32,000 nt of DNA from Opitutales bacterium UBA5694. GTDB lineage: Bacteria > Verrucomicrobiota > Verrucomicrobiia > Opitutales > Opitutaceae. A model generated the notes under the pieces. It was not told the origin of the DNA, did not search any database, and saw only the letters and a list, made by a program, of their open reading frames with translations. This document shows positions 2,620 through 15,725 of the stretch, in pieces; the first letter of the stretch is position 1; each line of letters opens with the position of its first letter. The stretch is from contig DIHO01000019.1 in the NCBI GenBank assembly GCA_002420185.1, positions 380,324 through 412,323 of the forward strand, given 5' to 3'. The position numbers and the translations under genes were made by a program.

Positions 2620-2837
2620 GATTTATAACTGATCTGAACTATTACCGATTGCCTCGTATAAGTGAGGCTTCCAACGATCTTCAAACTGTCAGGGAACCAT
2701 ATCCCTTGCAATCACACAGTATACCATCGCCACCAGCATGTTGACGAATAACAAGACAAACGACAATTCTCTGCGGATCGGTCCGATAGGGGACAAGGAG
2801 AACCGAGTGAGTTGATCTGTTACTCCGGATGTGTTCA

Positions 2838-4430
2838 TCATTCCATCACATCCTCAAACCAGTTTTCCAACTGGGATTTCAGTTCGCTGACCAATTCCGG
2901 ATACTGGTCTGCCAGATTATTCGTCTCACTTGGATCCTCCTCAATATTATAGAGCTCCGGTGCTCGTGCATCGGATAAGGTCCGCTCCACAGGAGGATTG
3001 GATATTTCCATCTCAAAATGCGGGCGATCGAATAATTCTCGATACGGTGGACCATCACTCTTGAGTTTTATCATGGCCTCAGGAATCCTGGGGTAATACA
3101 GCTTCCATGGACCATTCCGGACGGCTGAATTACAGTGCACCTCTGGATCATAACGATTGAACTGCCAGAATAGTGATCGCACATGATCATCTTGACCGGT
3201 TCGGAAAGAGGAGAGCAGCGATCGGCCGTCCAGTGGCAAAGTGGAAGCGGATTTAATGCCGGCGGCATCTATCAAAGTCGGGCGCCAATCTATGAAATGA
3301 CCAACTGGGTTTAGGGTTTTCCCTCCTTTAAATCCTTTTGGCCAACGAACCAGGCAGGGCACCCGTATTCCCCCCTCCAACACATCCTGTTTCATCCCTC
3401 TTAACGAACCATTGTAGCGGTCCATGTTATACTTCCCCTCGTCGCTGGAGTAATTGCCCAGCAGTGGGCCGTTATCGCTGGTGAAAACCACAATTGTATT
3501 ATACGCCTGGCCCGTTTCCTTGAGAGAATCAAGTACCTTTCCGATCCCAGTATCCATGCTTTCGATCATTGCGTAGAGGGTCGCCACACCCTTGTTGAGC
3601 TTCCCCATCTGCATGTATTTTTCCACCAGTTCCTGCGGTGCTTCCAACGGTGAATGGGGTGAGTTGTAGGACAGGTACAGCAAGAACGGATCCTGCCGTT
3701 TCACGCTAATAAAGCCTACCGCTTCATCCGTAAACATATCCGTCAGGTAGCGCTTATCACTTCTTTCCGAATAACCGTCCCGGTCGAGGATCCAGTTATA
3801 GTAATACATTCCTCCATTGAGAAACCCGAGGAAGTGGTCAAAGCCTCGAGCTATGGGATGGTATCGCATGTCATACAAACCGTTGTGCCATTTCCCGATC
3901 ATTGCCGTGACATATCCGGCTTGATTAAAGTCATCCGCGATCGTGGTCTCCTCTAAGGCGATTCTGTCCAGTCCACGATTGGATTCCACGGAAATGGCAC
4001 CTGTCCGGTGATTATAGCGGCCTGTCAACAGGCCAGCACGTGCAGGTGCACAGAGTGGTGAGGCGGAGTAATGTTGGTTCAGGATAAGGCCTTCTGCCGC
4101 TAGTCTATCCAGATTCGGCGTATTCAGAATAGTATTCCCGTAGCACCCCAAATCCCCGTACCCAAGATCATCTGCAAGGATGAATACGACGTTGGGTTTG
4201 CTGATAACGATATGCGAAAGGTCAGCTTCAGCTTTAAAGCGGATGAATTGGGTTGAATAAACAGCGTGAATAATCGGGCACAGGACTAGAAAGAGGAGAG
4301 AGAAGATGGCGTGTTTGATGGGGTGCATCTGTGGGGTAGTAGTTGAAGAATTTAGCCATCGATGGATGGTGGTGGGCTTTCGCAGATCAAATCTTCTCTG
4401 TGCATCAACTTTAGTGGTCCCAAACCTCAT
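2838..4430 (-). CDS. Arylsulfatase (type I, formylglycine-dependent)
   Basis: Motifs ILADDLGYGDLG, SPLCAPARAGLLTGR (C-x-P-x-R) and GKWHNG. The true start is probably the internal Met at 4328 (MHPIKHAIFSLLFLVLCPIIHA, a signal peptide) rather than 4430. Confidence 0.9.
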   Translation of the reverse strand: MRFGTTKVDAQRRFDLRKPTTIHRWLNSSTTTPQMHPIKHAIFSLLFLVLCPIIHAVYSTQFIRFKAEADLSHIVISKPNVVFILADDLGYGDLGCYGNTILNTPNLDRLAAEGLILNQHYSASPLCAPARAGLLTGRYNHRTGAISVESNRGLDRIALEETTIADDFNQAGYVTAMIGKWHNGLYDMRYHPIARGFDHFLGFLNGGMYYYNWILDRDGYSERSDKRYLTDMFTDEAVGFISVKRQDPFLLYLSYNSPHSPLEAPQELVEKYMQMGKLNKGVATLYAMIESMDTGIGKVLDSLKETGQAYNTIVVFTSDNGPLLGNYSSDEGKYNMDRYNGSLRGMKQDVLEGGIRVPCLVRWPKGFKGGKTLNPVGHFIDWRPTLIDAAGIKSASTLPLDGRSLLSSFRTGQDDHVRSLFWQFNRYDPEVHCNSAVRNGPWKLYYPRIPEAMIKLKSDGPPYRELFDRPHFEMEISNPPVERTLSDARAPELYNIEEDPSETNNLADQYPELVSELKSQLENWFEDVME

Positions 4431-4672
4431 TTACTCGTTACTGCTTTTGACGATCTACAGAAATATGCATAACTAGCTTCGATAGGTAGCCAAACACCTG
4501 CTTTGTTTACAATAAATCTGACTTGGTTAAATTGACAAGCAAATCATTTGTAATAAAGAAACGATTCACAGCCTAGGTAGGGTTGTGGTGTGAAAGGCGG
4601 CTAAAATCGAAACTAGTTACGGCACCCCGGAACTTTCCCCTACACAAATACATCAACTGAAATTTTAATTTA

Positions 4673-5545
4673 ATGAAAAGAACAGCACTTGTCACAGGAT
4701 CCAATCGAGGAATCGGCCTAGCTACTGTCATAAAGCTCGCTTGCCACGGGCTTAAGGTATATGCAGGAATGCGAGATCCGGAGACCAAATCAAAAAACCT
4801 TCTTCGTTCTATCTCAGGCGATGACTTAGACGTGGATGTTGTAGAACTCGATGTTAATCATGAAGCATCCGTCAAACGGTGTTTTGCTTCAATTGAGTCC
4901 TCAGGGGAAAAAGTAGACATCTTAATTAATAATGCTGGAATCGAGAGACGAGGATCGGTTGAAAAATGTCCTATCTCAACTTTCGAGGAAGTAATGAATA
5001 CGAATTATCTGGGACCCATTCGTTGCATTCAGGCAGCTTTACCGAATATGAAAAAAAGTGGTACAGGATTGATAGTAAATATCACTTCTGTAGCGGGCAA
5101 GGTGGCCGCTTCACCGCTTGCACCTTACACAGCATCTAAATTTGCTTTGGAGGCACTCTCAGACTGCCTCGCCCAGGAGGTACTGCCGCATGGCGTCAAA
5201 GTGGCGATAATCGAGCCCGGGATAATCGCGACAGACATGGCTGCTGACATAACCAAGGCAGAATACGATCCTGACTACCCACAGCAAAATAGGATGGCGG
5301 CCATGTTCGTAGAATCTCTCAAAAGCCCAGCATCGACTCAAATTGTAGCTGACGCTATAGTGGAGATCGTGGCTGGTAAAAGGGAAGGTTTACGGCATCC
5401 AGTTGGGCCAGATGCTATCCCGTTTCTTGAATGGAGAGAAAGCAAGTCAGACTCCGAGTGGGCGAATTGGCATAACGTCACTGACGAAGAGTGGTGCGAG
5501 TCGCTGGCAAAAGACTTTGGAATGAGCGTCAAATTAAGTGGCTAG
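4673..5545 (+). CDS. Short-chain dehydrogenase/reductase (SDR) family oxidoreductase
   Basis: N-terminal TGSNRGIGLA (TGxxxGxG dinucleotide-binding motif), NNAG motif, and the catalytic S...YxxxK (YTASK). It ends 40 nt upstream of the TIR gene on the same strand. Confidence 0.85.
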   Translation: MKRTALVTGSNRGIGLATVIKLACHGLKVYAGMRDPETKSKNLLRSISGDDLDVDVVELDVNHEASVKRCFASIESSGEKVDILINNAGIERRGSVEKCPISTFEEVMNTNYLGPIRCIQAALPNMKKSGTGLIVNITSVAGKVAASPLAPYTASKFALEALSDCLAQEVLPHGVKVAIIEPGIIATDMAADITKAEYDPDYPQQNRMAAMFVESLKSPASTQIVADAIVEIVAGKREGLRHPVGPDAIPFLEWRESKSDSEWANWHNVTDEEWCESLAKDFGMSVKLSG

Positions 5546-5585
5546 AATTTTTTATATGAACCCCAAAATGAAACTTTAGATCATC

Positions 5586-7088
5586 ATGAATGACATTTTT
5601 ATTAGTTACGCACACATTGACGACGAGTCCCTTGATGAGCAACAAAAGGGTTGGATCTCAAAATTTCATAGATCGCTTTCAGTCAAGATAGCCCAATTAA
5701 CAGGAGAACCTCCAAAGATTTGGAGAGATCCAAAGTTGCGAGGGAATGATGTGTTTGATCAGGCGATAGTGAATGAATTTAAGAATTCACGCCTGATGAT
5801 TTCGATACTTACTCCGAGATATGTGAAATCTGAATGGTGCCGGAAGGAAATAACTAATTTCTGTCGCAATGCTGAAGATCAAGGAGGACTCAATGTTGAA
5901 GGTAAATCGAGACTTATTAAAGTTATAAAAACCCCTATTGCTGCCCATTCGAGTGACACCCAGCTACCTGGCATTCTAGGGAGTATTTTGGGTTTTGAAT
6001 TCTTCGAGCTTGATCAAGAAACGGGCCGTGTAGTTGAGTTTGATGAGGCCTTTGGACAAAAGGCGAAACAAAGTTATTATTCTCGTATTTACGATTTAGC
6101 TACGGAGGTAGCCGATGTGCTTGTTGCGTTGGATAACGAGAAAGATGGGGATCAGGAATCCGTGATTCCTGCTCCAGATGAGGATAGCCAAATTGTTTTT
6201 TTGTCTTCGGTCACCTCAGACCTCGAGGAATCTCGTCGCAAAATTTCTCGTGAGCTCGTCGCCCGTGGTCATCAGGTAATAGGTTTAGATCCTTTGATTG
6301 CAGCCTCGGAAAATGCTTTGTCTGAAGCCACTGCAAAAATAAGCGAGGCGGATTGCGTGGTACACCTAGTAGGAGAGAAGTACGGCATCGTCCCTGAAGA
6401 TGCACAATGCTCCATACCTGAAATGCAATTGAATGCATCTGCCGAGCGTGCCTCAATCGATCCAAGCTTTAGGAGATTCGTTTGGATGCCAAGATCAGTG
6501 AATCCAACCGATCCCAGGCAAGTTACCTTTCTTCATGGTTTAATGGAGGACCCAAACCGTCAAAAGGGCGCAGAGATGCTTGAGGATACTTTGGATAATT
6601 TTAGAGACTACATTGTAGAAAAACTGCGTGTCCCGATACCCATTAGCACCCCGGCTGAAACGTCAATGCCGGATAGTGACGGAACAAAATCCGTTTACTT
6701 AATATACGACCTTCCAGACGAAGAGAACGTTGCGCCCTTGGAGGACTTCTTGTTTGATAATGGCTTGGAGGTTTTGACGCCAAATTTCGATGGTGATGAG
6801 TCAGAGATAAAGGAATCAAATATCGAAAAGCTCAAATCTTGCGATTCCGTCATGATATATTACGGCCAATGCGCTAAGACATGGGTCGATATGAAGCTCA
6901 TGAGCGTAATGAAAGCTCCCGGATATGGCAGGAAGAAGCCTTTTTCAAGCAAGCTCGTCTTCCTGGCACCGCCTTTTGATAGAAGGAAAATGCGATTCAG
7001 GAGCAACTTGGCTTCGGTAATAACTCAAGCGGACGAAGAATTTTCAGCGAAGGACCTAGAAATCGCTTTAGAAGAGCTAACGAAATAA
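5586..7088 (+). CDS. Triple-module TIR-like protein: N-terminal TIR domain, DUF4062-like module, and a third TIR/DUF4062-like alpha/beta module
   Basis: Module 1 (aa 1-~185) has DIFISYAHID...ISILTPRYVKSEWCRKEI, the classic bacterial TIR signature including the SxWCxxE glutamate (E88, nt 5847-5849). Module 2 (aa ~202-345) has IVFLSSVTSDLEESRRKISRELVARGHQV...ADCVVHLVGEKYG, which matches the DUF4062 pattern. Module 3 (aa ~368-500) has SVYLIYDLPDEE...CDSVMIYYG. Confidence 0.8.
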   Translation: MNDIFISYAHIDDESLDEQQKGWISKFHRSLSVKIAQLTGEPPKIWRDPKLRGNDVFDQAIVNEFKNSRLMISILTPRYVKSEWCRKEITNFCRNAEDQGGLNVEGKSRLIKVIKTPIAAHSSDTQLPGILGSILGFEFFELDQETGRVVEFDEAFGQKAKQSYYSRIYDLATEVADVLVALDNEKDGDQESVIPAPDEDSQIVFLSSVTSDLEESRRKISRELVARGHQVIGLDPLIAASENALSEATAKISEADCVVHLVGEKYGIVPEDAQCSIPEMQLNASAERASIDPSFRRFVWMPRSVNPTDPRQVTFLHGLMEDPNRQKGAEMLEDTLDNFRDYIVEKLRVPIPISTPAETSMPDSDGTKSVYLIYDLPDEENVAPLEDFLFDNGLEVLTPNFDGDESEIKESNIEKLKSCDSVMIYYGQCAKTWVDMKLMSVMKAPGYGRKKPFSSKLVFLAPPFDRRKMRFRSNLASVITQADEEFSAKDLEIALEELTK

Positions 7089-7100
7089 CCCTTCACGATC

Positions 7101-10100
7101 ATGAATAAAGAAGATTCTCAAAACCCTTTCCCTGGTTTGCGCCCTTTTTATTTTGATGATAGCTATCTCTTTTTTGGAAGGGATGCTCAGATAACGGAAC
7201 TTGCTAGTCGATTGCGTAAAAACAAATTCCTGGCTGTTGTTGGAACTTCAGGAAGCGGAAAGTCTTCACTCGTCCGGGCAGGCCTTCTGCCAGAGCTGTT
7301 GAGCGGCACCATGGTTAGTGCGGGTTCGCTTTGGGAAACAGCGATTATGAGACCAGGTGGTGACCCCATAACCAATTTGGCAGAGTCAATCGTACAGGCG
7401 GATCTATATGATCCCGAAGAGGAGGAGATCGTCTCTCAAGTGCGAGCAACCCTTACCAGGAGTGGTCTTGGACTGATAGAAGCCATCAGACAGTGCGACA
7501 TAGAGGAGGGCTCAAATCTTCTTATCGTCGTCGATCAATTTGAGGAGATTTTTCGGTTTAGGGGTAGCGATGACGCTAGTGACGAACAGGCGGCTTTTTT
7601 CGTAAATCTTCTGCTCGAGGCAACAGAACAAAGTGAGCTCCCAATCTATGTCATTATAACGATGCGATCAGATTTCTTGGGGGATTGTAGCCGATTTCCG
7701 AGACTGGCTAATTCTGTCAACGAGGGCGAATTTCTAATACCACGTTTAAATCGGGATCAGAGAAAAGAAGCGATAGAGGGTCCTATAAGAGTAGCAGGAG
7801 GAGAAGTATCCCAGCCTCTCCTGAACCGACTTCTCAATGATATTGGAGACGATCCAGATCAATTGCCCATATTGCAGCATGCCCTTATGCGAACTTGGGG
7901 ATATTGGGCAAAACATAGTGATCGTGATTCTATTGACTTGGATGATTACAGGGCGACCGGCGGCATGACAGAAGCTCTGTCACGTCACGCAAATGAGGTC
8001 TACGCTGCTCTACCAAGCGATGGTCACAGAAAAATAGCGGAAAAGGTTTTTAAGAATCTAACGGAAAAGATTGATCAAGGACGGGGAATTCGAAGGCCTA
8101 TGCCTTTTGGAGAGCTCCTTGAAATTGTCCAATGTGCTGAGGAGGATCTACGTTTAGTCGTAAACGAGTTTCGTGCCGCAGGTAGAACTTTTTTAATGCC
8201 AGCCCCGACGAGGAAAATTGATTTGTCTACCGTAATAGACATTTCGCACGAAAGCCTCATGCGAGTGTGGACTCGTCTCAAGGACTGGGTAGACGATGAA
8301 TCACAGTCGGCAAGGATTTACAGGCGTTTGGCTGACACAGCACAACTTTTTGAAGAAGGAAAAGCGGGCTATTATCGAGATCCGGATCTTCAGATCGCTA
8401 TGTCTTGGAAAGAAGAGGCACAACCGAATCACCTGTGGGCAGATAGGTACTATGAGGGATTCGACAGAGCAATGCAGTTCCTCGACAAAAGCTATGAGGT
8501 CACTAGGCAGGAAGAGATTGATAAAGAGAACGCAAGAATTCGCGAATTAGAATCTGCTAAGGCATTGGCGGCAGAGCAGGAAAAGAGAGCAGCCATTGAA
8601 AAAAGAAGTGCAAAAAGACTCAGAGTTTTGTCAGCTGGACTGGCATTGGCGGGCATTGCCTCTCTCGTTTTCTTAGCGTTTGCAATCAATTCAAAAAACG
8701 AAGTTAGCAATAAGATAAATGAGTTAGCGTCACGAAGTTTTCTTAGGGGACAAGAACTTGAAAAAAGCAAAGACGGTCTCAAGGCCTTGCCTTGGTACCT
8801 CGATGCAGTTGATCTGTCTAAAGGTAATGAATCGCTCAATGCAAAATATTTAAATGCTCTTTCAAATAAGCTTTCTAGTAATTTTATCCTAGAAAAAGGA
8901 ATAAATGTAAAAGACGTCTCGGAGTTGATCATCTCTGAAGACGGAAAGCTACTCGTGATAAATACAAACGCTGGTTTGTTTGGCGCGGAAAACAAGGTCC
9001 ACGTTTACTCATGGCCAGATCTGAGAGAAGTCTGCGAGTTGAAAATCGATGGAGTGATTTTTAAAACCAAGATTTCCCCAGATGGAGGTCATATATTCTC
9101 ATGCTCAAATATTGAATCAAAAGTTTGGAGTGTTTCGGCTGATTCTAAGACTGTTTTTCAAAAACCCTATTTTGGCAGCTTTTCATTCAATCCAAAAAAT
9201 GAAGGTGGATATCATTTGTTTGGATCCTCAGAAGGATTATCTAGAATTGAGAGGGACTTTAGCCAAGAGTCAGTCGTCCATAGCAGGAGAGTTGCTTCAA
9301 CGGCTATATCACCAAACGGGAATCATTATATTTCAATTGAAGAACTAGACCGCGAAACCACTGGTAGCGTGCCAAGTGCAGTCTTCAGAAGGCGATTATT
9401 TAGGTCAGGAGGAGTGCCCTCAAAAATAGTCAGTTTCAGTATTAAAAATGATTCCTTCGAACAAGATTTTGAGAGCGAGTTTGAAGGTTTCATCAGTCAA
9501 ATTATTTTTCCTGATGACTCGCCTGAAGGAATAGCGTTTTTCTCGGCTAGCCAATCTTCTAAACGCTTCACGCAGGTGAACTTCTCAATAGGCGAAGTTT
9601 CTAACGCGGCTCTACTAGATTTCGGTGGTGTGGATCCAGGAGAGCTTCAGATAAAATCAGGAGGTGATAAAGTTCTAGTCGCATCGAGTGTTGGCTCATT
9701 GCAAATACTCGAGAAGCAGCCAACTGGTTGGGAATTAGTTCAAAATTTTCCCCTCAGCGAGAATAGCCCCTCCGATATTAGTAGTAATGGATTGGACGTC
9801 CTGACGTCCAACTCAAATGGATCAATACAATTGTTGTCGGCAATTTCTGGAGATCAATTTGCCGACTCCTTGTATGGGAAAGTGGCGATTAAGGACGCGA
9901 TCTTCGGGCCATCTGATGATAAGGTCATTGTAGCACTTGAGAATGGTGAAGTTAAAGTTTTTTCTATACCCATCGGTAAAGTACGAGTTACTGGAACACC
10001 GTACCAATCTTCCGTCAGCGGTGGGAGGGGTCCTTGGCTAGCCGTCGATGGAATTGTACAATCGACTCGTTCTCCACGAACTCGATCTTCAGATGACTTT

Positions 10101-11975
10101 GAACCGACCTCCATGTCGACGGAGCTCGGAGACGCAAATCCGATGTGGCGTCTAAATTTTGACAGGGTAAGCAAGGTAACTGATGCGAAGATTTGGAATC
10201 GTCCCTCCGCGGGCGTAACCCCAAATCCAAATGATATGTTCATACGACGGCTTAAAAATTTTAAAGTGTCTTTAAAGTTGGATGGCGAGACCGTTTGGGA
10301 AAAATTGTTTCTCCACAAGAAAAGTGATAGTCCCCCATATCCTTACCATGAGGTGGAGTTTGATGACGGAGTGATGGCCGACTGTTTCGAAATAACCATA
10401 ACCGATGTAAACGAAAACAATGAAAAGATCCTCTCTCTTTCTGAGGTCGAAGTTTTTGCTATTTCTGAAAATAAAAATGTCAAATTCGGTGAAGATCTAT
10501 CTCAATATGTAAGGGAAGTCTCTAGTCATGAGTTACTTGCAGACGGAAGAGTCGTTTTATCGAGTTCTAGCATAGAAGCGAAATCATTCGCAAGTTACAC
10601 TAGCAAAGGGGGCGAAGAAGAAAGAATTCTTTCGAAATTTTTAAAAGCTTACGATTCACAAAACTGGACCCTTTGTGTACGGTATTTTTCACAACTTGGC
10701 CTAAATCGGGAAAATTCTGAAGTGGTCCGTAAAGCTATTATCTGCTATAGGAGCTTAGGTTCGTTCGAGGATTCCCAAAAGCTCCTAGCTAATTACTTAA
10801 GTAGTAGTTCACCAGATTATAAATTCATCGTGAATGAATTGTGTAACTTAGATCAATTTGGTTTGGACGTTGGGAGCCTTGTTACAAAGGTGTTATCTAC
10901 GGAGTCGTTTTACCAAGATAAATTAGCGTGCAAAAGCATGAGCCTATTTTTGGTTTCTAGCGACAAATACCAGCTAAGCCAGAGATTACACGATTGGTTG
11001 GAGGATGAATACAACAGAAGAGATTCATACGCTACATTGAGGCCTTCCGAGAATTATGATCTGGAAAACGGAATTACAATTGAAGGCTGGTTTAGATATG
11101 ATGCGCGTGGTTTTTACAGTTGGGCCCCTCGACTTATCAACAAATTCGGCCAAGGAGGCTCCGATGGGTACTGCCTGACTGTTGCTGGCTCCGGAAAAGT
11201 GCTTTTTGAGCTCAATAACAGCAGCACGGGTGAAGCAGCCTACCATTCTGTCGATTCACCCGAATCTGGACAGTGGTTTCATTTAGCAGCAACTTGGGAT
11301 ATACAAACTAAACAAATGCGTATGTACATCGACGGTGTCGAGAAAGGTGATCCATTAGAGTTTCAAGGTCCGATTGGCCTTACAAGCGTACCTCTCGGTT
11401 TCGCAACAAACAATCTAAGAGCGACCCGCATAGATGCCTCATATTCCGAAATAAGGATCTGGAATTACGCAAGAAGTAGTGAACAAATTAGAGAAAATAA
11501 AAACAAGCGGTTAGATGCTGAGCTAGACGGACTTGCTTTTTACGGATCTTTTTCTGATGAAAACGAGATCAGAAAGTTGCCGTGGAGTAAAATTGTGAAT
11601 CCATCAATTCAATCCACCAAGCAGCTCCCTTTCGGAAGTGAAACAGATTATCTCGCTCTTACCGAATCCAATAGTTTTACGGAGAACTTATGGTTGGATT
11701 TGATTCTCGCAGAAAGCTACTTTCAGCGAGATGAAATGAGCGAAGCATTAAACATTCTGACAGCTTCAGATTTTAGATTTAGCAGCCGAGTTTACAATCC
11801 AGCTAGATTAGGGTTAATATCTAAATATCTTACTTTCATAGACGACGGAAATGAGGTATTCCGGGAAAGGATGAGCAGCTTGTTGCAGCAGGGCATAACT
11901 GAAATGAACAAACCCTCCGAAGGGATGCTCCCGTCTTGGGTACCACAAGTGAGAAAGTTAATACAGCCTTTTTAA
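7101..11975 (+). CDS. Transmembrane STAND NTPase (nSTAND-type P-loop) with a beta-propeller-like, discoidin-like, helical-repeat and LamG C-terminal region
   Basis: The N-terminus is NPFPGLRPFYFDDSYLFFGRD...FLAVVGTSGSGKSSLVRAGLLPEL (Walker A). It also has LLIVVDQFEEIF (Walker B), ITMRSDF, LPILQHALMRTW and ISHESLMRVW, the signature of the nSTAND/WD40-associated NTPase family. A coiled coil spans aa ~465-508. A TM helix VLSAGLALAGIASLVFLAFAI (aa 509-529) is preceded by KRSAKRLR. Degenerate WD40-like repeats cover aa ~600-960. A discoidin/F5-8-C-like region covers aa ~975-1122 (MWRLNF...KVSLKLDGETVWE...LSLSEVEVFA). A LamG domain covers aa ~1315-1465 (ITIEGWFRY...GQWFHLAATWD...MRMYIDGVE...IRIWNYARS). 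Confidence 0.85.
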   Translation: MNKEDSQNPFPGLRPFYFDDSYLFFGRDAQITELASRLRKNKFLAVVGTSGSGKSSLVRAGLLPELLSGTMVSAGSLWETAIMRPGGDPITNLAESIVQADLYDPEEEEIVSQVRATLTRSGLGLIEAIRQCDIEEGSNLLIVVDQFEEIFRFRGSDDASDEQAAFFVNLLLEATEQSELPIYVIITMRSDFLGDCSRFPRLANSVNEGEFLIPRLNRDQRKEAIEGPIRVAGGEVSQPLLNRLLNDIGDDPDQLPILQHALMRTWGYWAKHSDRDSIDLDDYRATGGMTEALSRHANEVYAALPSDGHRKIAEKVFKNLTEKIDQGRGIRRPMPFGELLEIVQCAEEDLRLVVNEFRAAGRTFLMPAPTRKIDLSTVIDISHESLMRVWTRLKDWVDDESQSARIYRRLADTAQLFEEGKAGYYRDPDLQIAMSWKEEAQPNHLWADRYYEGFDRAMQFLDKSYEVTRQEEIDKENARIRELESAKALAAEQEKRAAIEKRSAKRLRVLSAGLALAGIASLVFLAFAINSKNEVSNKINELASRSFLRGQELEKSKDGLKALPWYLDAVDLSKGNESLNAKYLNALSNKLSSNFILEKGINVKDVSELIISEDGKLLVINTNAGLFGAENKVHVYSWPDLREVCELKIDGVIFKTKISPDGGHIFSCSNIESKVWSVSADSKTVFQKPYFGSFSFNPKNEGGYHLFGSSEGLSRIERDFSQESVVHSRRVASTAISPNGNHYISIEELDRETTGSVPSAVFRRRLFRSGGVPSKIVSFSIKNDSFEQDFESEFEGFISQIIFPDDSPEGIAFFSASQSSKRFTQVNFSIGEVSNAALLDFGGVDPGELQIKSGGDKVLVASSVGSLQILEKQPTGWELVQNFPLSENSPSDISSNGLDVLTSNSNGSIQLLSAISGDQFADSLYGKVAIKDAIFGPSDDKVIVALENGEVKVFSIPIGKVRVTGTPYQSSVSGGRGPWLAVDGIVQSTRSPRTRSSDDFEPTSMSTELGDANPMWRLNFDRVSKVTDAKIWNRPSAGVTPNPNDMFIRRLKNFKVSLKLDGETVWEKLFLHKKSDSPPYPYHEVEFDDGVMADCFEITITDVNENNEKILSLSEVEVFAISENKNVKFGEDLSQYVREVSSHELLADGRVVLSSSSIEAKSFASYTSKGGEEERILSKFLKAYDSQNWTLCVRYFSQLGLNRENSEVVRKAIICYRSLGSFEDSQKLLANYLSSSSPDYKFIVNELCNLDQFGLDVGSLVTKVLSTESFYQDKLACKSMSLFLVSSDKYQLSQRLHDWLEDEYNRRDSYATLRPSENYDLENGITIEGWFRYDARGFYSWAPRLINKFGQGGSDGYCLTVAGSGKVLFELNNSSTGEAAYHSVDSPESGQWFHLAATWDIQTKQMRMYIDGVEKGDPLEFQGPIGLTSVPLGFATNNLRATRIDASYSEIRIWNYARSSEQIRENKNKRLDAELDGLAFYGSFSDENEIRKLPWSKIVNPSIQSTKQLPFGSETDYLALTESNSFTENLWLDLILAESYFQRDEMSEALNILTASDFRFSSRVYNPARLGLISKYLTFIDDGNEVFRERMSSLLQQGITEMNKPSEGMLPSWVPQVRKLIQPF
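7242..7265 (+). other. Walker A / P-loop (GTSGSGKS) of the STAND NTPase
   Basis: aa 48-55 of the 7101..11975 ORF. Walker B hhhhDQFEE is at aa 140-149 (nt 7518-7547). Confidence 0.85.
8625..8687 (+). other. Single predicted transmembrane helix inside the STAND protein
   Basis: 21 uninterrupted hydrophobic/small residues (VLSAGLALAGIASLVFLAFAI) with a basic cluster (KRSAKRLR) on the N-terminal side. By the positive-inside rule the NTPase sits in the cytoplasm and the ~1090-aa C-terminal region sits outside. Confidence 0.6.
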
Positions 11976-12005
11976 TCATTTTTTTGGAATAAAATGAAAA
12001 TCACG

Positions 12006-12020
12006 GGCCTATCTTAGGCC
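12006..12020 (+). other. Intercistronic stem-loop (GGCCTA-tct-TAGGCC)
   Basis: Perfect 6-bp inverted repeat with a 3-nt loop, between the STAND stop (11975) and the next start (12028). No U-tract follows, so it is not a canonical terminator. Confidence 0.35.
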
Positions 12021-12027
12021 AGTAAAT

Positions 12028-13716
12028 ATGGGTTCATCTCCAGTTAGATTTGCGATAGTTTCTTTAGGTTTATTGGCCCTTTACCTTGGTTGGATCGGTG
12101 CTAACAGCTTATCGGCAGATGATTCCTTCTTAGATTCTTTGTATAAAGCAGTGAAGTTATTCGTGCTTGAGGATTCAGGTATGTTTCGACTCGAGCATCC
12201 CGTAACCCTCGAAATTGCCCGTTGGTTGGCCCCTATGACAACGATTTCTAGCATTTTTGCCGCTGCTAGCACTTATCTTAGGCAGTTATCGGATTTCATC
12301 AGGCTCGTGTTCTGTAGTGATCATACTATAGTCCTTGGAGCTAGTGCCGAGGCCTTGCACCTAATTGCAGACTTAAGTGCATCCAAGACTGGGAAAATCG
12401 TTGTGATTGAAAAAAACGCGAACGCTCCGAACCTGCAGGAATTAAAAAAGTATCGGTCTCTCGTAATCATAGGAGATTTCGAATCTAGGGCTAACTTAGA
12501 AAAAGCAAGAGTATATAAAGCAAAATCTGTAATTAGCCTCACTAGCAAAAACGAAAAAAATCTTTCTGTTATACTGCGGGCAAGTCAGCTGATTCCTGAT
12601 CAAAGGTTCGATAATCCGGTAAAGTTTTATCTGCCAATAAAAGGCTTTTTTCACACAGAATCTCTACAGAGCAGTGGAATTTGTGATTATCCAAGTGCAA
12701 GGAAGAAAAAAATCATAGTAGTCAACCTAGTTAGAAATCGTGCTCGATGTTTATTCTCAAAACATCCAATCGAGCTTGATCGATTAGGAAAAGTAAAGGA
12801 GCCAATTGTCATTTTTGATACCTACAATGATCTCGTTCAGGCTTTTATAGTACATACTGCTGAGGTTGGTCATTACCCTAATAACGTTAAGGCAACTATT
12901 TATATCGTAAGTCCTGACGCCGAAATAAAAGTTGAGAAATTAGCCTATCATTTTCCAGCCGTGAGAGATTGTGTTAATCTTCAAAGCGTGTCGCTCAAAA
13001 GCGGTGACGATGCGGTAGACACTATCGCGGAACTAATCGAGAGCAAGCAGGGCAATTACAATAAATCAGTATTCTTAATGGAATCTTCGCCTCCGTCAGA
13101 AATGATCGAGGCAATAAGAATCAAGGAGAAAATCACGATCGATGCCTCAGTCACATTTGTGATACCTGAGTTAGATAATGGATTACTACCAAAGGGCATC
13201 GATTGTATAAAGAGTGTTGAGACTTTAAAGGATAGCTTGAGCGGTGCAGCAGTCTTTATGGCTTCTTTAGAAGATTCGGCGAAAAAACTGCACGAGGCAT
13301 GGTATAATCAAAATGACATGCTAATTAAGGCCGCAGAGACCGAGGGTATGGTTGATAAGGCTTCAGCACTGAAAAGCAAACCAGCGTTTCTGCCCTGGGA
13401 GGACCTTAGTGATGAACAGAGGAAGCCAAGCATTTCTCTAGCTGATCATGCAGAGATAAAGAGGCGATTCATTATGTCCGCAATGGGAAAGAAAGAAGGT
13501 AGCTCCATCGACGCTAAGTTGATAGATGAAAGCGTGATGGATGCACTTTGCCGGATGGAGCACAACAGATGGATGTCAACCTTAAGGATGATGGGATGGA
13601 ATTATGGCTCGAAACGGAATGACGATAAGAAAATACACAACAATTTGGTCCCATATGACGAGCTTGATGCCGATGCGAAATCCTTCGACAAGACTATGAT
13701 CGAAAATTTGCATTAG
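12028..13716 (+). CDS. Membrane protein with a 2-TM channel-like core, a TrkA-N (RCK-type Rossmann) domain and C-terminal RyR-domain repeats
   Basis: TM1 is FAIVSLGLLALYLGWIGA. A pore-helix-like segment DSLYKAVKLFVLEDSG follows, with no TVGYG filter. TM2 is LEIARWLAPMTTISSIFAAA. The Rossmann region is HTIVLGASAEALHLIADL...KIVVIEKN...LVIIGDFES...AKSVISLT. Two C-terminal RyR-like repeats are present (KKLHEAWYNQ...PWEDLSDEQRKPSISLADH and CRMEHNRWMSTLRMMGWNYG...HNNLVPYDELDADAKSFDK). Confidence 0.75.
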   Translation: MGSSPVRFAIVSLGLLALYLGWIGANSLSADDSFLDSLYKAVKLFVLEDSGMFRLEHPVTLEIARWLAPMTTISSIFAAASTYLRQLSDFIRLVFCSDHTIVLGASAEALHLIADLSASKTGKIVVIEKNANAPNLQELKKYRSLVIIGDFESRANLEKARVYKAKSVISLTSKNEKNLSVILRASQLIPDQRFDNPVKFYLPIKGFFHTESLQSSGICDYPSARKKKIIVVNLVRNRARCLFSKHPIELDRLGKVKEPIVIFDTYNDLVQAFIVHTAEVGHYPNNVKATIYIVSPDAEIKVEKLAYHFPAVRDCVNLQSVSLKSGDDAVDTIAELIESKQGNYNKSVFLMESSPPSEMIEAIRIKEKITIDASVTFVIPELDNGLLPKGIDCIKSVETLKDSLSGAAVFMASLEDSAKKLHEAWYNQNDMLIKAAETEGMVDKASALKSKPAFLPWEDLSDEQRKPSISLADHAEIKRRFIMSAMGKKEGSSIDAKLIDESVMDALCRMEHNRWMSTLRMMGWNYGSKRNDDKKIHNNLVPYDELDADAKSFDKTMIENLH

Positions 13717-14170
13717 AAAATTGAGTCACTTGGTGCTTTTTGGCCGTCGAAAAGTTTAAAGAGTTAAAAAGTATATAGGTACTAGGAGTGTGACTTAGGG
13801 TTTAGCAGTGGATCAGTGTGAGACCTTAAAAAATGGATACAAGAAAGCAAACAGAGCTTCAGTTAAGGGTACATCCCGTTTATCTACGTAAATAGAATAA
13901 GTTGGGTGCTTGGCACTCCAACTGGTTTTAACTTTGCATAGCCCGGGGGAGGATATAATCGAATAACTATTAGAGCGATAGAGCTTTTGCGTCGTAACGT
14001 TAATCGAGCCGAGATCATAGAATCACTTTTGAAGGCAATCTGGGCGATTTCAATGCGATTACTGATGTACCGGTAGTAGCGGTAGGGCATTGTGCGATCT
14101 TGCCGACTGGTCTCGACTATAGACCCTTTCGCATTCTTACTAAGGAAGGTGTCATGCTGTGACAAGGGAT

Positions 14171-15595
14171 TTAAGCCCAAACGCTATGAAACCGTGCCAT
14201 GGATGCATCTCGAATTAAAGCCTGGCCAAAGGCAAACGCTCCCGGTGTTGTGACCATCAGTTGTGGGCAGATGATCATGTAAGCCTTTTCACTGGGATAG
14301 AAGAAGCCTTGTGTCAGTGCATAGCCGCCCCAGTGACTCATGTCTTGATGGTCACTGACCTGATAACCGCAGAGTGAATTTTGATCTGCGTGGGAGGTCG
14401 CCCAGCCGAAATGAAATGACTTGGGAAAAGGGCTGTGTTGGCCAGCTACTCCAAACGCCTTTGCCAATGGGGTATCTAGTCTCAGATCTTGGAAGCGACC
14501 TTTGCATAGCGTGTGCACGCCCTGCGGACTGATAAGCCGCTGACCGCTTTCCGTGATCCCTCCTCGCAAAAGCATATCATAAAACTTTGAGTAGTCGGAG
14601 GCGGTCATGAGTGATCCTGTGTCTCCTGTTTCGAAGCTCCTTGGCCCGCGGTAGTGGGCCGTCTGGTTGGTCAAACGGAAAGGGCCTTCCGGATAACAAT
14701 CTTTCTCTTCTGCAACCATGGTCTTCGTACCATCGGTGGAAAGCTTCGCTCCATAAAGGGTGGGGATCCGATCGATTCTCGGATCACCGTCACCGAGGAA
14801 AAAGGCTGCATCGTTCATTTCTAGTGGATCAAACAGAAGTTCAGACATGATTTCAGAAAACTTTTGAGGCTTTCCCCGAGACGTCTCATACAGTACTTCG
14901 ATCAAGCGGCTGAGAACGGTTGCACCATGACCGTAAGAAAACTCTCCCGGTTCGCAGGTGAGAACTCCTGCCTCGCCGATCGTGTTGACGAATTGCTCCA
15001 AGGTTAAATCTGCGCCCAAAATGTTGGTGCTTCGATAAACGTCTGGATGAATTTTCTGTCGAAGGCCACTAGCGATCAGCCCTGATTTTCGATCACATAG
15101 TCCACCACCCAAAAAAGAATCGTATTCCCCAAAAAGGTCATACTCAATGCCAGCTGATTCACTCATCAAGTGCTTGATCTGCATTTTTTCGGAGGTCGTT
15201 TTCCGATCGAATTTCAGATCAAGCTTCTCTCCGGTTAAGAAGCTGGAGTATTTCAAGGATTCGGGTCCATCGTCAGATTCAACAACGACTTCCCAGTCAC
15301 GATCGAATGAAGGAATGTATTGGCCAACCTCATCCTCAAAGTCAAACAGGCCTTCCTCGTACAGCCGTAATGCGACGAAGCTCGTCAGCACTTTGGTCAT
15401 ACTGAACATGCGAAACATCGCATCGCAGGACATGGGTTTGTTGGTTGCTAGATCGCTTACGCCAAAAGCTTTGTGATAGGTGTCGTTTCCGCATTTCGCA
15501 AAAACCACCAGCCCGGGCACTGACAGCCGTTCATCGCAAAGAAGATCAGAGAAGTGCACATCCAACAGAGATTCATAATCAGGTTTAAATTTCAT
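14171..15595 (-). CDS. Serine hydrolase, beta-lactamase/esterase (class C-like) family
   Basis: 474-aa ORF with the S-x-x-K nucleophile motif (FSMTKV) in the expected N-terminal context (FRMFSMTKVLTSFVALRLYEEG). Length and overall pattern fit the transpeptidase-fold esterase/PBP4-like family. Confidence 0.75.
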   Translation of the reverse strand: MKFKPDYESLLDVHFSDLLCDERLSVPGLVVFAKCGNDTYHKAFGVSDLATNKPMSCDAMFRMFSMTKVLTSFVALRLYEEGLFDFEDEVGQYIPSFDRDWEVVVESDDGPESLKYSSFLTGEKLDLKFDRKTTSEKMQIKHLMSESAGIEYDLFGEYDSFLGGGLCDRKSGLIASGLRQKIHPDVYRSTNILGADLTLEQFVNTIGEAGVLTCEPGEFSYGHGATVLSRLIEVLYETSRGKPQKFSEIMSELLFDPLEMNDAAFFLGDGDPRIDRIPTLYGAKLSTDGTKTMVAEEKDCYPEGPFRLTNQTAHYRGPRSFETGDTGSLMTASDYSKFYDMLLRGGITESGQRLISPQGVHTLCKGRFQDLRLDTPLAKAFGVAGQHSPFPKSFHFGWATSHADQNSLCGYQVSDHQDMSHWGGYALTQGFFYPSEKAYMIICPQLMVTTPGAFAFGQALIRDASMARFHSVWA

Positions 15596-15725
15596 GTTTC
15601 GACTAATTTAGACGTAGGTGGATCAGACGGGCAGTGTCAGTACGCCTCGCTGAGAGAATTTGTAATCCTTTGAATAGATTTCGTCTACTGCTACGCTTTC
15701 CGGAACTGATGCTAGGAAGTTGAAT

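Follow-up and report, generated by a model that had tools for sequence, protein, structure and literature searches.

The window, i.e., the whole 32,000-nt stretch of contig DIHO01000019.1 that was analysed, carries an intact ORF for a STAND protein of 1624 aa. A second gene (the partner gene) lies directly upstream, and a possible third component follows downstream. The features were assigned as follows.

5586..7088, + strand: partner gene, 500 aa, three TIR-like alpha/beta modules (Pfam, AF2), ending 12 nt before the STAND gene
5586-6143, + strand: partner TIR_2 module, aa 1-186 (Pfam E=2.6e-14, 54.2 bits against a cut-off of 28)
6192-6626, + strand: partner DUF4062/NIR-like module, aa 203-347 (Pfam DUF4062 E=5.1e-12)
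6690-7082, + strand: partner divergent DUF4062-like module, aa 369-499 (AF2, hhalign)
7101..11975, + strand: whole gene of the predicted membrane-spanning nSTAND1 protein, intact ORF, 1624 aa
7125..8360, + strand: nSTAND1 NTPase module, predicted cytoplasmic, aa 9-420 (Pfam PF20703 E=7e-98)
7242-7268, + strand: Walker A, GTSGSGKSS, aa 48-56 (motif residues invariant in 32 homologues)
7521-7547, + strand: Walker B, LIVVDQFEE, aa 141-149 (motif residues invariant in 32 homologues)
8481..8624, + strand: charged helix before the membrane helix, aa ~461-508, ending in KRSAKRLR (sequence; AF2 from aa 491)
8625..8687, + strand: single predicted transmembrane helix VLSAGLALAGIASLVFLAFAI, aa 509-529 (hydropathy; position conserved across the family)
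8688..8879, + strand: juxtamembrane helices, predicted periplasmic, aa 530-593, with the motif LKALPWYLDA (alignment, AF2)
8886..10007, + strand: degenerate WD40-type beta-propeller, aa ~596-969 (AF2, Foldseek)
10107..10466, + strand: F-type-lectin-like module of the galactose-binding/discoidin superfamily, aa ~1003-1122 (profile against solved lectins)
10614..11015, + strand: alpha-helical (TPR-like) repeats, aa ~1172-1305 (AF2 secondary structure)
11022..11660, + strand: LamG/concanavalin-A-like lectin module, Pfam aa 1308-1463, sandwich to ~1520 (Pfam, AF2)
11676..11963, + strand: C-terminal helical region, aa ~1526-1621 (AF2, low confidence)
12028..13716, + strand: possible third component, a membrane protein with TrkA_N and RyR, 52 nt downstream (Pfam)

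Pfam recognized the NTPase module as nSTAND1 at 329 bits (cut-off 27.1), and the match runs over positions 1-374 of the 379-position profile. The original prediction, made from the DNA letters, had placed a STAND NTPase module of about 460 aa at the N-terminus, and the match at aa 9-420 agrees with it. No effector domain is fused at the STAND N-terminus; nSTAND1 begins at aa 9. Metagenome relatives include one protein 98% identical and of equal length, and others 68-70% identical and 1631 aa long. The NTPase module is 52-67% identical to homologues, but their C-terminal parts are only 14-25% identical. Across phyla, the NTPase identity is 45-67%. Searching with aa 1-560, which covers the NTPase, phmmer found 13,601 cluster-50 representatives at E<=1e-30. 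In PADLOC, no model was assigned to the STAND protein or to the upstream TIR/DUF4062 partner. The STAND protein matched none of the Avs family models and gave weak P-loop matches (E about 1e-3) to mad3 and mad8 only.

The segment VLSAGLALAGIASLVFLAFAI is the sole strongly hydrophobic stretch of the STAND protein in the hydropathy scan. Its Kyte-Doolittle mean over 19 residues is 2.32, and the runner-up window reaches 1.04. The original prediction had described one hydrophobic helix of 21 residues at nt 8625-8687 with the flank KRSAKRLR, and the hydropathy analysis returned exactly these coordinates. Before it, a charged coiled coil had been proposed, which is given here as a charged helix. In the AF2 model of aa 490-1624 (pLDDT 76.8), the segment is contained in one continuous helix of 65 residues (aa 491-555). 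A survey of nSTAND homologues for such a helix together with discoidin/LamG modules had also been proposed. The helix was found at the same position in all of the 120 best homologues, in 129/131 cluster-50 representatives and in 77/77 ORFs of sufficient length taken from 80 genomes (six phyla), and also in 6 of 8 distant nSTAND1 relatives on plasmids (27-38% identity). The cyanobacterial caspase- and CHAT-nSTAND1 proteins that were examined carry it as well. Because its position is conserved across the whole family, the helix is not a chance feature. Its sequence varies in the family, with a length of 19-24 aa and a basic N-terminal flank being kept, and it is uniformly hydrophobic, not amphipathic. 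A buried core helix is unlikely, because such a helix would keep its sequence and not just hydrophobicity and length.

The orientation of the helix was judged by flanking charges. In the window protein, 7 K/R were counted among the 15 residues preceding the helix, compared with 2 among the 15 that follow it. Over 120 homologues the means are 5.55 and 3.13 K/R per 15 residues, and the mean net charge is +3.8 before and +0.45 after, the N-side being more positive in 111/120. None of these homologues has a hydrophobic, signal-peptide-like N-terminus. In many homologues, a coiled-coil stalk of more than 100 residues, rich in A/E/K/Q, directly follows the helix and is long enough to span a periplasm. 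The N-in/C-out single-pass topology is therefore predicted as very likely, on hydropathy and charge counts, which are both crude measures. The claim that the sensor faces the periplasm or cell surface by the positive-inside rule is supported indirectly and as a prediction, by the charge bias, the conservation of the helix, the stalks, the post-helix domain types and the outer-membrane genes next to related STAND genes. All computational tests that were run agree with this topology and with an extracytoplasmic sensor.

The 1095 residues after the helix begin with a short helical stalk, on which the propeller, the F-type-lectin-like module, the helical repeats and LamG follow. The juxtamembrane motif LKALPWYLDA is conserved, and W565 and D568 are invariant in 33 homologues. 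Degenerate WD40-like repeats had been proposed for the region after the helix. The fold stood, as the propeller of the AF2 model aligned in Foldseek with WD40 propellers at target-normalised TM-scores of 0.62-0.74, e.g., 5nnz_A (0.74) and 5yzv (PkwA WD40, 0.71). However, the repeats of this copy are too degenerate for the Pfam WD40 thresholds, the best match being Beta-prop_THOC3 (E=0.015). Homologues of the STAND protein gave strong WD40 Pfam matches.

The discoidin-like module proposed at nt ~10023-10466 holds at the superfamily level, and by profile it is more precisely an F-type lectin. A beta-sandwich was modelled by AF2 at aa ~1015-1120. The Pfam match of the window copy to F5_F8_type_C_2 (aa 1003-1087, E=0.059) is under the cut-off, and F5_F8_type_C or F5_F8_type_C_2 was found in 8-9 of 11 homologues. 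When the lectin-region profile of 11 homologues was compared with solved F-type (fucose-binding) lectins, the best five gave E=2e-17 to 3e-12. The matches include the Sm-hPAF lectin (4gwi/3le0, E=2e-17), FBP32 (6.5e-16) and a fucolectin-related protein of S. pneumoniae (E=1.9e-13). The fucose-binding triad of F-type lectins is His/Arg/Arg. By alignment, the two triad Arg are kept in the window copy (R50 and R66 of the alignment), and the His is absent, with TEL where relatives have THT.

Helical repeats had been expected after the discoidin-like module, and AF2 helices were found there at aa ~1172-1305; homologue P0009 has TPR matches at the equivalent place. The LamG module, previously placed at nt ~11043-11495, was detected as Laminin_G_3 at nt 11022-11489 (E=1.2e-21, 77.9 bits against a cut-off of 27.6), and the LamG-type beta-sandwich was modelled at aa ~1310-1520.

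The accessions PF07691, PF06439 and PF07676 were found among the post-helix domains of homologues. We take these to be PA14, DUF1080 and PD40, respectively; PF06439 was named 3keto-disac_hyd in the domain search. In homologue L089, a Peptidase_M74 (MepA murein endopeptidase) domain follows the helix. The post-helix domain types, i.e., F-type lectin, LamG, the three accessions found in homologues and the Peptidase_M74 of L089, are extracytoplasmic in kind and support the predicted topology. WD40, TPR and ankyrin repeats are the commonest post-helix modules and are uninformative on location. The make-up of the ectodomain changes wholesale among relatives, i.e., WD40 only, TPR only, lectins, ankyrin or peptidase, and paralogues with differing ectodomains occur inside one genome or contig. 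A conserved NTPase combined with a hypervariable ectodomain and paralogues is a conflict-type signature.

The partner has no hydrophobic segment at its N-terminus and opens with the beta-A strand of the TIR fold. Its AF2 model (pLDDT 82) consists of three alpha/beta modules. By Foldseek it matched the TIR domains of SARM1, TLR1 and MyD88, each with probability 1.00, as well as those of RPP1 and RUN1 and a nucleoside 2-deoxyribosyltransferase. The DUF4062 match covers aa 204-280 with 46.3 bits against a cut-off of 24.7, and modules 2 and 3 align with each other (hhalign, E=2e-4). The presence of this TIR + DUF4062 gene directly upstream is new in this analysis. The pair recurs across phyla. In 70 of 80 genome loci, the STAND gene is directly preceded by a partner homologue, with gaps of -4 to 27 nt, and the same holds for all six metagenome loci checked, down to 38% identity. 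Functional coupling of the STAND protein to the TIR partner is likely.

The catalytic Glu of the TIR module is E88 in the window copy, within an SxWCxxE motif aligned to plant TIRs, and was kept in 45/71 partners. The DUF4062 domain was found in 62/71. In anti-phage systems, DUF4062 domains act as NADases (bioRxiv 10.64898/2026.05.01.722283, 10.64898/2026.09.04.749371), and the reference catalytic glutamates of DUF4062/NIR are E97 of KpSwz, E108 of PsAvs2 and E87 of Eva01. The F11/E87 spacing of Eva01 points to Q281 as the candidate catalytic position by residue counting only, with E279 as the alternative. By the same counting this position is Gln in 68/71 partners, so the DUF4062 module may be inactive. 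The chances of an NAD+-consuming or NAD+-derived output are put at about even. In other partners, a Ser/Thr kinase domain (8/71) or a nucleotide cyclase domain (4/71) was found, and in a Runella variant the upstream TIR is replaced by STAS, an anti-sigma antagonist and an RsbW-like kinase. These variants indicate signalling rather than suicide.

An outer-membrane beta-barrel or TonB-dependent receptor gene was found near the STAND gene in 31/80 loci, i.e., 26/28 of Bacteroidota and 5/20 of Acidobacteriota, nearly always directly downstream. It mostly starts within about 17 nt of the STAND gene end, and a few ORF calls overlap the STAND gene or sit up to ~100 nt off. As exceptions, one gene sits on the opposite strand upstream of the STAND gene, and two others are more distant or have an over-extended ORF call. 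A lipoprotein gene follows the outer-membrane gene in 23 loci, and these outer-membrane and lipoprotein partners all carry signal peptides. The same outer-membrane gene arrangement stands beside the STAND gene on a Runella plasmid. The TonB-dependent receptor/barrel, lipoprotein and MFS-HEAT genes belong to a syntenic five-gene operon in 23-26 of the 28 Bacteroidota loci, which looks vertically inherited. No outer-membrane partner gene was found at the window locus.

The best reading of these results is a single-pass inner-membrane STAND receptor that works with the upstream TIR/DUF4062 gene, with a probability of roughly 55%. The conflict-type signature was counted in its favour. The NTPase and the TIR partner would be cytoplasmic, and the propeller/lectin region would be translocated and face the periplasm. 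The variable ectodomain may bind an envelope-borne or external ligand, which could be a piece of the envelope, something made by a competitor or a particle bearing glycans (e.g., an adsorbing phage), and the signal would pass via the helix or by receptor clustering. The direct autoinhibitory contact between sensor and NTPase of the Apaf-1 type would be impossible, because the membrane lies between them. Ligand binding would then lead to NTP-dependent oligomerisation of the NTPase modules, and the oligomer would recruit or activate the TIR/DUF4062 partner for NAD+ cleavage or a nucleotide signal. Growth arrest, cell suicide or downstream signalling would be the outcome.

The name nSTAND1 (PF20703) goes back to Kaur, Iyer, Burroughs and Aravind (eLife 2021, PMC8195603). 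The NTPase of the window is a full-length, high-scoring member of these conflict NTPases, and its relatives, like nSTAND1 proteins already described, join the NTPase to an effector (TIR, caspase, CHAT or trypsin) and to WD40/TPR/FGE C-terminal regions. Unlike in these nSTAND1 proteins, the effector candidate here is a separate three-module TIR/DUF4062 protein, neither fused at the N-terminus nor EAD-linked. No mention of a transmembrane helix after nSTAND1 was found in the nSTAND1 papers that were read. The 'transmembrane STAND ATPases' are listed as sensors fused to Pepco-associated proteases in a 2025 preprint (bioRxiv 10.1101/2025.11.14.688446), and caspase-NTPase-TM architectures were drawn in the 2012 survey of Asplund-Samuelsson et al. 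(PMC3501461). Both share the architectural idea of the STAND protein but are figure-level mentions without analysis of topology, ectodomain, outer-membrane partner or TIR/DUF4062. The idea is therefore not wholly new, though mentioned only in passing. The original prediction of a different sensing logic stands as a predicted difference from cytoplasmic Avs.

Avs and bacterial NACHT proteins share a STAND NTPase, a variable C-terminal repeat sensor and a death-type effector with this system, and Avs2 uses DUF4062, also present in the partner here, as effector. However, in Avs the sensor is cytoplasmic and its ligands are phage terminase or portal proteins, whereas here a membrane helix is predicted to part the sensor from the NTPase, and the candidate effector would act in trans. 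The eukaryotic NWD1, NWD2 and TEP1 likewise combine a STAND NTPase with a TIR-like DUF4062 module and a WD40 propeller. In them, however, the three parts form one cytoplasmic polypeptide that lacks a membrane helix, and the NTPase is of the NACHT type. Toll-like receptors (TLRs) and single-pass bacterial receptor kinases such as PknD and PknB follow a similar logic, in which a single membrane helix joins the ectodomain to a signalling module in the cytoplasm. TIR domains also serve in TLR signalling, and PknD has an extracellular beta-propeller. However, their ectodomain and switch are non-homologous, and here an NTP-driven STAND oligomerisation module is placed between the membrane and the TIR output. 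FecA-FecR-FecI and the SusC-like transducer/anti-sigma pairs are cell-surface signalling systems. The relatives in Bacteroidota and Acidobacteriota resemble these in encoding an outer-membrane TonB-dependent receptor or barrel beside a single-pass inner-membrane protein with a predicted periplasmic domain. The window locus differs in having no outer-membrane gene, and its cytoplasmic side is an NTPase and TIR, not anti-sigma/sigma.

An immune or conflict role, against physiological signalling, is proposed tentatively, at somewhat less than even odds. In its strongest form, which is a speculative proposal, the protein would be an outside-in innate-immune receptor uniting TLR and NLR logic in many bacteria. 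The outward ligand-binding domain, the one membrane helix and the TIR output would be TLR-like, and the NTP-driven STAND oligomerisation switch would be NLR-like. A periplasmic or outer-membrane-coupled propeller/lectin sensor might then respond to foreign glycans, to attack by a competitor or to a phage that adsorbs or injects, prior to any entry into the cytoplasm, and fire the TIR/DUF4062 NADase.

The same membrane architecture could instead serve physiological trans-envelope signalling, which is possible but rather doubtful. The periplasmic propeller/lectin domain would then inform signalling enzymes in the cytoplasm of envelope stress, of a substrate captured at the surface or of a glycan that serves as nutrient. 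An outer-membrane receptor may assist as in FecA-FecR or SusC-anti-sigma, and the TIR would be a second-messenger generator or scaffold, not a killer. The flanking genes look like ordinary chromosomal context (sulfatases, polA, SIS/CBS). The host region, with sulfatases and a BNR sialidase carrying LamG, is one of polysaccharide degradation, and the ectodomain contains lectin modules; both count in favour of this reading. The apparently vertical Bacteroidota operon, the kinase or cyclase fusions of the partner, the Runella variant and the NTPase identity across phyla also speak for such signalling. Known defence families were not enriched in the flanks (118 neighbours), so immune and physiological signalling roles are both possible. 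However, the TIR and DUF4062 modules characterised so far are NAD+-degrading immune effectors. The caspase, CHAT, trypsin and TIR effectors that relatives carry in cis, and the DUF4231 proteins adjoining the Caballeronia versions, typify conflict systems; DUF4231 proteins are presumably SLATT-type predicted pore effectors. A hypervariable ectodomain on a constant NTPase with paralogue expansion also resembles immune receptor diversification.

A structural role of the ectodomain in a membrane-spanning protein is improbable. In this reading, the beta-propeller and alpha-solenoid would form a scaffold or a coat-like element in the periplasm, the cytoplasmic NTPase would drive or time its assembly, and the TIR-like partner would be a non-catalytic adaptor. 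In Foldseek, the propeller and helical repeats also aligned with COPI and IFT-A coat proteins, and the Gln of DUF4062 and the loss of the TIR Glu in about 1/3 of partners would suit an adaptor. However, the coat matches have TM-scores of 0.13-0.25 and high rmsd, indicating generic propeller/solenoid folds, and the wholesale ectodomain change among relatives fits ligand-recognition diversity, not a conserved scaffold.

Least probable is an ordinary cytoplasmic STAND sensor whose helix is not constitutively membrane-spanning but buried, oligomerising or a latent membrane-inserting effector like alpha-1 of plant CC-NLR resistosomes: WD40 and TPR are standard cytoplasmic STAND sensors and the sole post-helix modules in most homologues, and AF2 confidence across the helix is only 53-72, but a uniformly hydrophobic helix that is free in sequence and fixed in position, length and basic flank, that is not packed into a domain in the model and that is followed by long A/E/K/Q stalks argues against it; the periplasm-type modules and the outer-membrane/lipoprotein operon partners also favour export.

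To our knowledge, the sensing of ligands in the cytoplasm is shared by every STAND immune protein characterised in prokaryotes (Avs, bNACHT) and by the eukaryotic NLRs, and we know of no member of the transmembrane STAND class that has been studied so far. Surface sensing is the task of receptor classes other than STAND/NLR. If the predicted topology of the inner-membrane STAND receptor is true, STAND switches can also be wired as transmembrane receptors, and it becomes a mechanistic question how ligand binding reaches an NTPase that the sensor cannot touch. Through this family, cues from the envelope or from outside may reach a death or signalling enzyme within the bacterial cell. If the immune reading is also true, outside-in STAND immunity would make up an entire class, its members numbering tens of thousands in at least six phyla. 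The TIR/DUF4062 partner links the family to the new NIR/Swarozyc NADases and to eukaryotic DUF4062-NACHT-WD40 proteins (NWD1, TEP1). A concrete, testable trans-envelope model follows from the operon partners, i.e., the outer-membrane barrel and the lipoprotein, and cultured, tractable carriers occur in Cytophagales, Caballeronia, Streptomyces and Nostoc. In Caballeronia NK8, TIR is fused in cis to nSTAND1-TM, and in Caballeronia SBC2 a separate TIR gene lies upstream.

The gene downstream of the STAND gene encodes TrkA_N, an NAD-binding Rossmann domain (Pfam E=4.8e-11), and RyR (E=2.7e-13). Its place as a third component of the system is suggestive only. The TrkA_N/RyR gene also adjoins a 68%-identical STAND paralogue, and RyR, TrkA_N or TPR-S/cyclase proteins were found near the pair at about 10 other loci of Bacteroidota, Acidobacteriota and Verrucomicrobiota.

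The ORF of the STAND protein (7101-11975, + strand) was intact and codes for 1624 aa. At the sequence level its NTPase is a bona fide nSTAND1, i.e., a member of the family named in PMC8195603. In a hydropathy scan, exactly one membrane-grade segment, VLSAGLALAGIASLVFLAFAI, was found at aa 509-529 (nt 8625-8687). Its Kyte-Doolittle 19-residue mean was 2.32 vs 1.04 for the next best window, and KRSAKRLR lies immediately N-terminal to it. The original prediction had placed one helix with this flank here, and its coordinates and description were exact. The C-terminal part (aa 490-1624) was modelled by AlphaFold2 from 33 homologues with a mean pLDDT of 76.8. Four ORFs of 84-167 aa inside the gene, two antisense (8492-8995 and 9854-10318, - strand) and two in other frames of the same strand (8296-8550 and 9082-9348, + strand), are most likely chance ORFs.

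Features of the STAND protein (aa positions; all encoded on the + strand)
aa 9-420, +, full-length nSTAND1 NTPase (Pfam E=7e-98)
aa 48-56, +, Walker A GTSGSGKSS, intact and invariant among homologues
aa 141-149, +, Walker B LIVVDQFEE, intact and invariant among homologues
aa 491-555, +, single unbroken helix through the hydrophobic segment (AlphaFold2)
after aa 555, +, two short helices between the long helix and the propeller (AlphaFold2)
aa ~596-969, +, beta-propeller (AlphaFold2)
aa ~1015-1120, +, beta-sandwich (AlphaFold2)
aa ~1172-1305, +, alpha-helical repeats (AlphaFold2)
aa ~1310-1520, +, LamG beta-sandwich (AlphaFold2; Pfam Laminin_G_3 at aa 1308-1463, E=1.2e-21)
after the LamG module, +, C-terminal helices (AlphaFold2)

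The degenerate WD40-like repeats read from the sequence correspond to a propeller fold in the model, which in a Foldseek search against PDB was similar to the WD40 propellers of human ODA16 (TMt 0.74) and PkwA (TMt 0.71); the Pfam propeller match at aa 564-670 was sub-threshold (E=0.015). Foldseek on the whole C-terminal model gave propellers only and no lectin-module match, so the lectin modules were identified by sequence profiles. The discoidin-type Pfam match at aa 1003-1087 was also sub-threshold (E=0.059), and F5_F8_type_C_2 was passed by 9 of 11 homologues of this region. A profile built from these 11 homologues matched the Streptococcus mitis Sm-hPAF lectin (E=2e-17), striped-bass FBP32 (E=6.5e-16), and the S. 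pneumoniae fucolectin-related protein (E=1.9e-13 and 2.8e-12). By profile comparison, the predicted discoidin-like module is refined to an F-type lectin domain, within the same galactose-binding superfamily. The His of the fucose-binding motif was lost in the window copy. The LamG assignment was borne out by both the Pfam match and the modelled beta-sandwich.

The helix was then surveyed in the nSTAND1 family. All 120 best homologues carried a single hydrophobic helix straight after the NTPase, at aa 476-532 or, in two entries truncated at the N-terminus, at aa 367 and 419. The helices were 19-24 aa long and differed in sequence, and a hydrophobic N-terminus was found in none of the 120. Scanning one genome per species, at least 595 relatives were found. 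The best 80 of these, taken for locus analysis, belong to Verrucomicrobiota, Planctomycetota, Acidobacteriota, Cyanobacteria, and Bacteroidota, plus Desulfobacter, and the helix was present in 77/77 of their ORFs long enough to judge. It was also present in 129/131 further cluster-50 representatives and in 6/8 distant plasmid relatives (27-38% identity), i.e., Runella, two Caballeronia, Nostoc caspase-nSTAND1, Nostoc CHAT-nSTAND1, and Streptomyces HTH-nSTAND1, and was absent from Tolypothrix trypsin-nSTAND1 and Chlorohelix nSTAND1-SUMF1. Therefore, the helix predicted from one gene is widespread in nSTAND1, but not universal, and its recurrence identifies it as a family character and not an accident. 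With aa 1-560 as the query, phmmer matches at E<=1e-30 numbered 13,601 cluster representatives. The protein belongs among STAND/TIR systems, and the post-NTPase helix marks a very large multi-phylum family. In the phage collection, only three weak matches were found, all in uncultured 'Bacteriophage sp.' records, and the nSTAND1-TM family is not phage-borne.

Because there is a single helix, the two halves of the STAND protein lie on opposite membrane sides. The ATPase half should be cytoplasmic, since it has no signal peptide and is followed by a basic flank. Among the best 120 homologues, K/R averaged 5.55 per 15 residues before the helix and 3.13 after it; the net charge was +3.8 and +0.45, respectively, and the N-side was more positive in 111/120. 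Export of the C-terminal half is supported by the F-type lectin and LamG modules. In homologues, PF07691, PF06439 (Pfam name 3keto-disac_hyd), and PF07676 were found, which we take to be PA14, DUF1080, and PD40, and past the helix of one homologue from Pyrinomonadaceae there is a MepA-type murein endopeptidase domain (E=7.6e-12). In many homologues the membrane helix runs directly into a heptad A/E/K/Q-rich helix of >100 residues, plausibly a periplasm-spanning stalk. The commonest post-helix modules, WD40 in 47/67 homologues and TPR in others, are uninformative on cellular location. The opposite N-out/C-in topology was rejected, since it runs counter to the charge bias and would need a 508-aa ATPase to be exported without signal peptide into a compartment lacking ATP. 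We strongly infer the N-in/C-out topology with a periplasmic ectodomain, at a probability of roughly 85%. The original reading of an extracytoplasmic sensor is thus supported by several independent computational lines, i.e., charge bias, lectin and MepA-type domains, stalks, and outer-membrane neighbours.

These neighbours, a further support for C-terminal export, are outer-membrane beta-barrel genes near the STAND gene, found in loci of Bacteroidota (26/28) and Acidobacteriota (5/20) among the best 80 of at least 595 relatives. The barrel proteins bear signal peptides and matched OMP_b-brl_2, Phenol_MetA_deg, or Plug + TonB_dep_Rec. In nearly all such loci the barrel gene is on the same strand directly downstream, mostly starting within ~17 nt of the STAND end, with a few ORF calls overlapping or up to ~100 nt off. 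The exceptions are L051 (upstream, opposite strand), L068 and L073 (394 and 701 nt downstream), and L040 (ORF call overlapping the STAND gene by 198 nt). Within the same best 80, the next gene after the barrel codes for a lipoprotein in 23 loci, and a 10-12-TM MFS-like/HEAT gene is nearby in 27 loci, nearly all upstream of the TIR gene. The annotated Runella plasmid has the same order, STAND and then TonB-dependent receptor. A five-gene operon (23-27 of the best 80 loci, nearly all Bacteroidota; typically L057, 1311-11452) was recognized in the following order.

Gene order of the five-gene operon
1, MFS-like+HEAT protein (10-12 TM, ~1055-1090 aa)
2, TIR/DUF4062 protein
3, nSTAND1-TM-WD40 protein
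4, signal-peptide outer-membrane beta-barrel
5, lipoprotein (~400-470 aa)

The operon lipoprotein has acidic residues just past the lipobox Cys, which resembles the Bacteroidota surface-lipoprotein export signal.

The outer-membrane partners in many lineages extend the original prediction, and so does a constant TIR/DUF4062 partner gene of the family, which was absent from it. The gene (5586-7088, + strand, 500 aa) is placed 12 nt upstream of the STAND gene and matched TIR_2 (E=2.6e-14) and DUF4062 (E=5.1e-12). Its AF2 model (pLDDT 82) shows three alpha/beta modules, with Foldseek matches to the TIR domains of SARM1, TLR1, MyD88, RPP1, and RUN1 and to nucleoside 2-deoxyribosyltransferase; module 3 is a distant copy of module 2 (hhalign E=2e-4). 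Of the genome loci (best 80 of at least 595), 70/80 have a partner homologue as the immediate upstream neighbour of the STAND gene, and so do all examined metagenome loci, which reach down to 38% identity in the STAND protein. Some partners have an added Ser/Thr kinase (8/71) or nucleotide cyclase (4/71). In Caballeronia NK8 a TIR domain is fused to nSTAND1-TM, a fusion carried on a plasmid, and in Caballeronia SBC2 a separate TIR gene precedes the nSTAND1-TM gene.

In three 2026 preprints, including bioRxiv 10.64898/2026.05.01.722283 and 10.64898/2026.09.04.749371, DUF4062 domains are shown to be TIR-like NADases, both in the anti-phage systems Swarozyc, NIR/Avs2/Vulcan/Vesta, and Evangelion and in human TEP1; the catalytic Glu is given there by residue number only. 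A PDB sequence search found no DUF4062 structure. The TIR catalytic Glu is present as E88 in the window partner and is kept in only 45/71 partners. In the DUF4062 motif S-x-x-[DE]-x-Q (residues 276-281), Gln occupies position 281 in 68/71 partners, the expected catalytic Glu position by an uncertain mapping from the spacing of the Eva01 F11/E87 pair. Because of this Gln, the DUF4062 module may be a catalytically dead regulatory copy and the canonical TIR (E88) the active one.

The cluster-50 representative P0245 (1138 aa) was considered as a partner-NTPase Rosetta-stone fusion and rejected. It has two tandem nSTAND1 copies with three hydrophobic segments between them and another after, so that the same NTPase is arranged differently with respect to the membrane. 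Giants of 2500 to >4000 aa (Planctomycetota L016-L025 and L030, and some other members; representatives reach 4119 aa) keep the same N-terminal NTPase and helix, and their partners often have an added Ser/Thr kinase.

The STAND protein would be a single-pass receptor whose variable periplasmic ectodomain binds a ligand from the envelope or outside; in some lineages this ligand may be supplied by the barrel and lipoprotein. With the sensor out of reach of the NTPase, coupling is probably by ligand-induced clustering or by a conformational change transmitted along the continuous coiled-coil/membrane helix. Oligomerisation of the NTPase modules would follow and switch on the TIR/DUF4062 partner, which would consume NAD+ or synthesize a nucleotide signal. 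In function, such a receptor comes closest to TLRs, to single-pass receptor kinases, and to cell-surface signalling of the FecA/FecR type.

A conflict or immune role of this receptor is a real possibility, at somewhat under even odds. It fits the TIR/DUF4062 modules of the partner, the caspase, CHAT, or trypsin effectors in cis of relatives, and the DUF4231 genes beside both Caballeronia NK8 and SBC2 systems. It also fits NTPases that are 52-67% identical where ectodomains are only 14-25% identical, and paralogues differing in ectodomain within one contig or one MAG. However, by PADLOC and Pfam, defence genes were not enriched among 118 flanking ORFs (the PD-T4-6 and DRT matches were generic kinases and polA), so a 'defence island' argument is unusable. 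The ordinary chromosomal context with sulfatases and a sialidase, the synteny of the five-gene operon across Cytophagales, the kinase or cyclase partner variants, and the Runella variant with STAS/RsbW-type genes and not TIR also speak against it. Physiological trans-envelope signalling, the other reading, is only slightly less likely than the immune one.

The STAND protein is not a member of Avs: no PADLOC model was matched by the three proteins of the locus, the effector is unfused, and the sensor lies past the membrane helix. The TIR/DUF4062-STAND pair mirrors the DUF4062 + STAND + WD40 triad of eukaryotic NWD1 and TEP1. The literature touches on a transmembrane STAND only briefly: a list of sensors fused to Pepco-associated proteases includes 'Transmembrane STAND ATPases' (bioRxiv 10.1101/2025.11.14.688446), a survey from 2012 depicts caspase-AAA-TM architectures (PMC3501461), and one NACHT-CLec DGR target was predicted periplasmic. 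In the literature on nSTAND1, DUF4062, and transmembrane STAND/NLR, no analysis of such an architecture, its topology, ectodomain repertoire, outer-membrane partners, or TIR/DUF4062 pairing was found. Cultured carriers include Fulvivirga kasyanovii JCM 16186, Chryseotalea sanaruensis, Chryseosolibacter histidini, Flammeovirga sp. SJP92, and Caballeronia with its plasmids, and make the system testable in experiment.

A promoter/terminator scan of window 4300-14300 gave the same counts as shuffles and does not inform operon boundaries. The window has no tRNA, and thus no integration-site clue. At 12028-13716 (+ strand), 52 nt downstream of the STAND gene, a membrane protein with NAD-binding-type TrkA_N and RyR was found. 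RyR, TrkA_N, or RyR+TPR-S+MAP3K_TRAF_bd+cyclase proteins adjoin the TIR/STAND pair in ten loci of three phyla (L001, L002, L005, L026, L035, L055, L061, L069, L078, and L081), and the TrkA_N-RyR protein may be a third, lineage-variable component reading an NAD-derived signal. The metagenome contig L001 (19.8 kb) has two system copies: the first (1555-9686) is the paralogue at 68% identity, accompanied by a TrkA_N-RyR gene, and the second (13943-15959) begins with adh_short + TIR exactly as in the window. The arrangement differs between close relatives, because the window lacks the first copy.

On the Runella rosea plasmid NZ_CP030852.1 (L090, 2522-11794), TIR is replaced upstream of the nSTAND1-TM gene by STAS, an anti-sigma-factor antagonist, and a small RsbW-like ATP-binding protein, and a TonB-dependent receptor follows STAND. 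This variant suggests partner switching (sigma factor) as another output open to the same receptor. On the Caballeronia plasmids L091 (TIR + nSTAND1-TM-WD40) and L093 (TIR-nSTAND1-TM fusion), the adjoining DUF4231 proteins, a SLATT-type of predicted pore effector, have several hydrophobic helices, with integrase and IS genes nearby. In the window, the regions 748-4430 (- strand) and 18130-20880 (- strand) code for two sulfatases, of 530 and 916 aa, and for a BNR sialidase that has a LamG module; the first ~470 residues of the larger sulfatase had no Pfam family match. The setting resembles a region for the degradation of marine polysaccharides.
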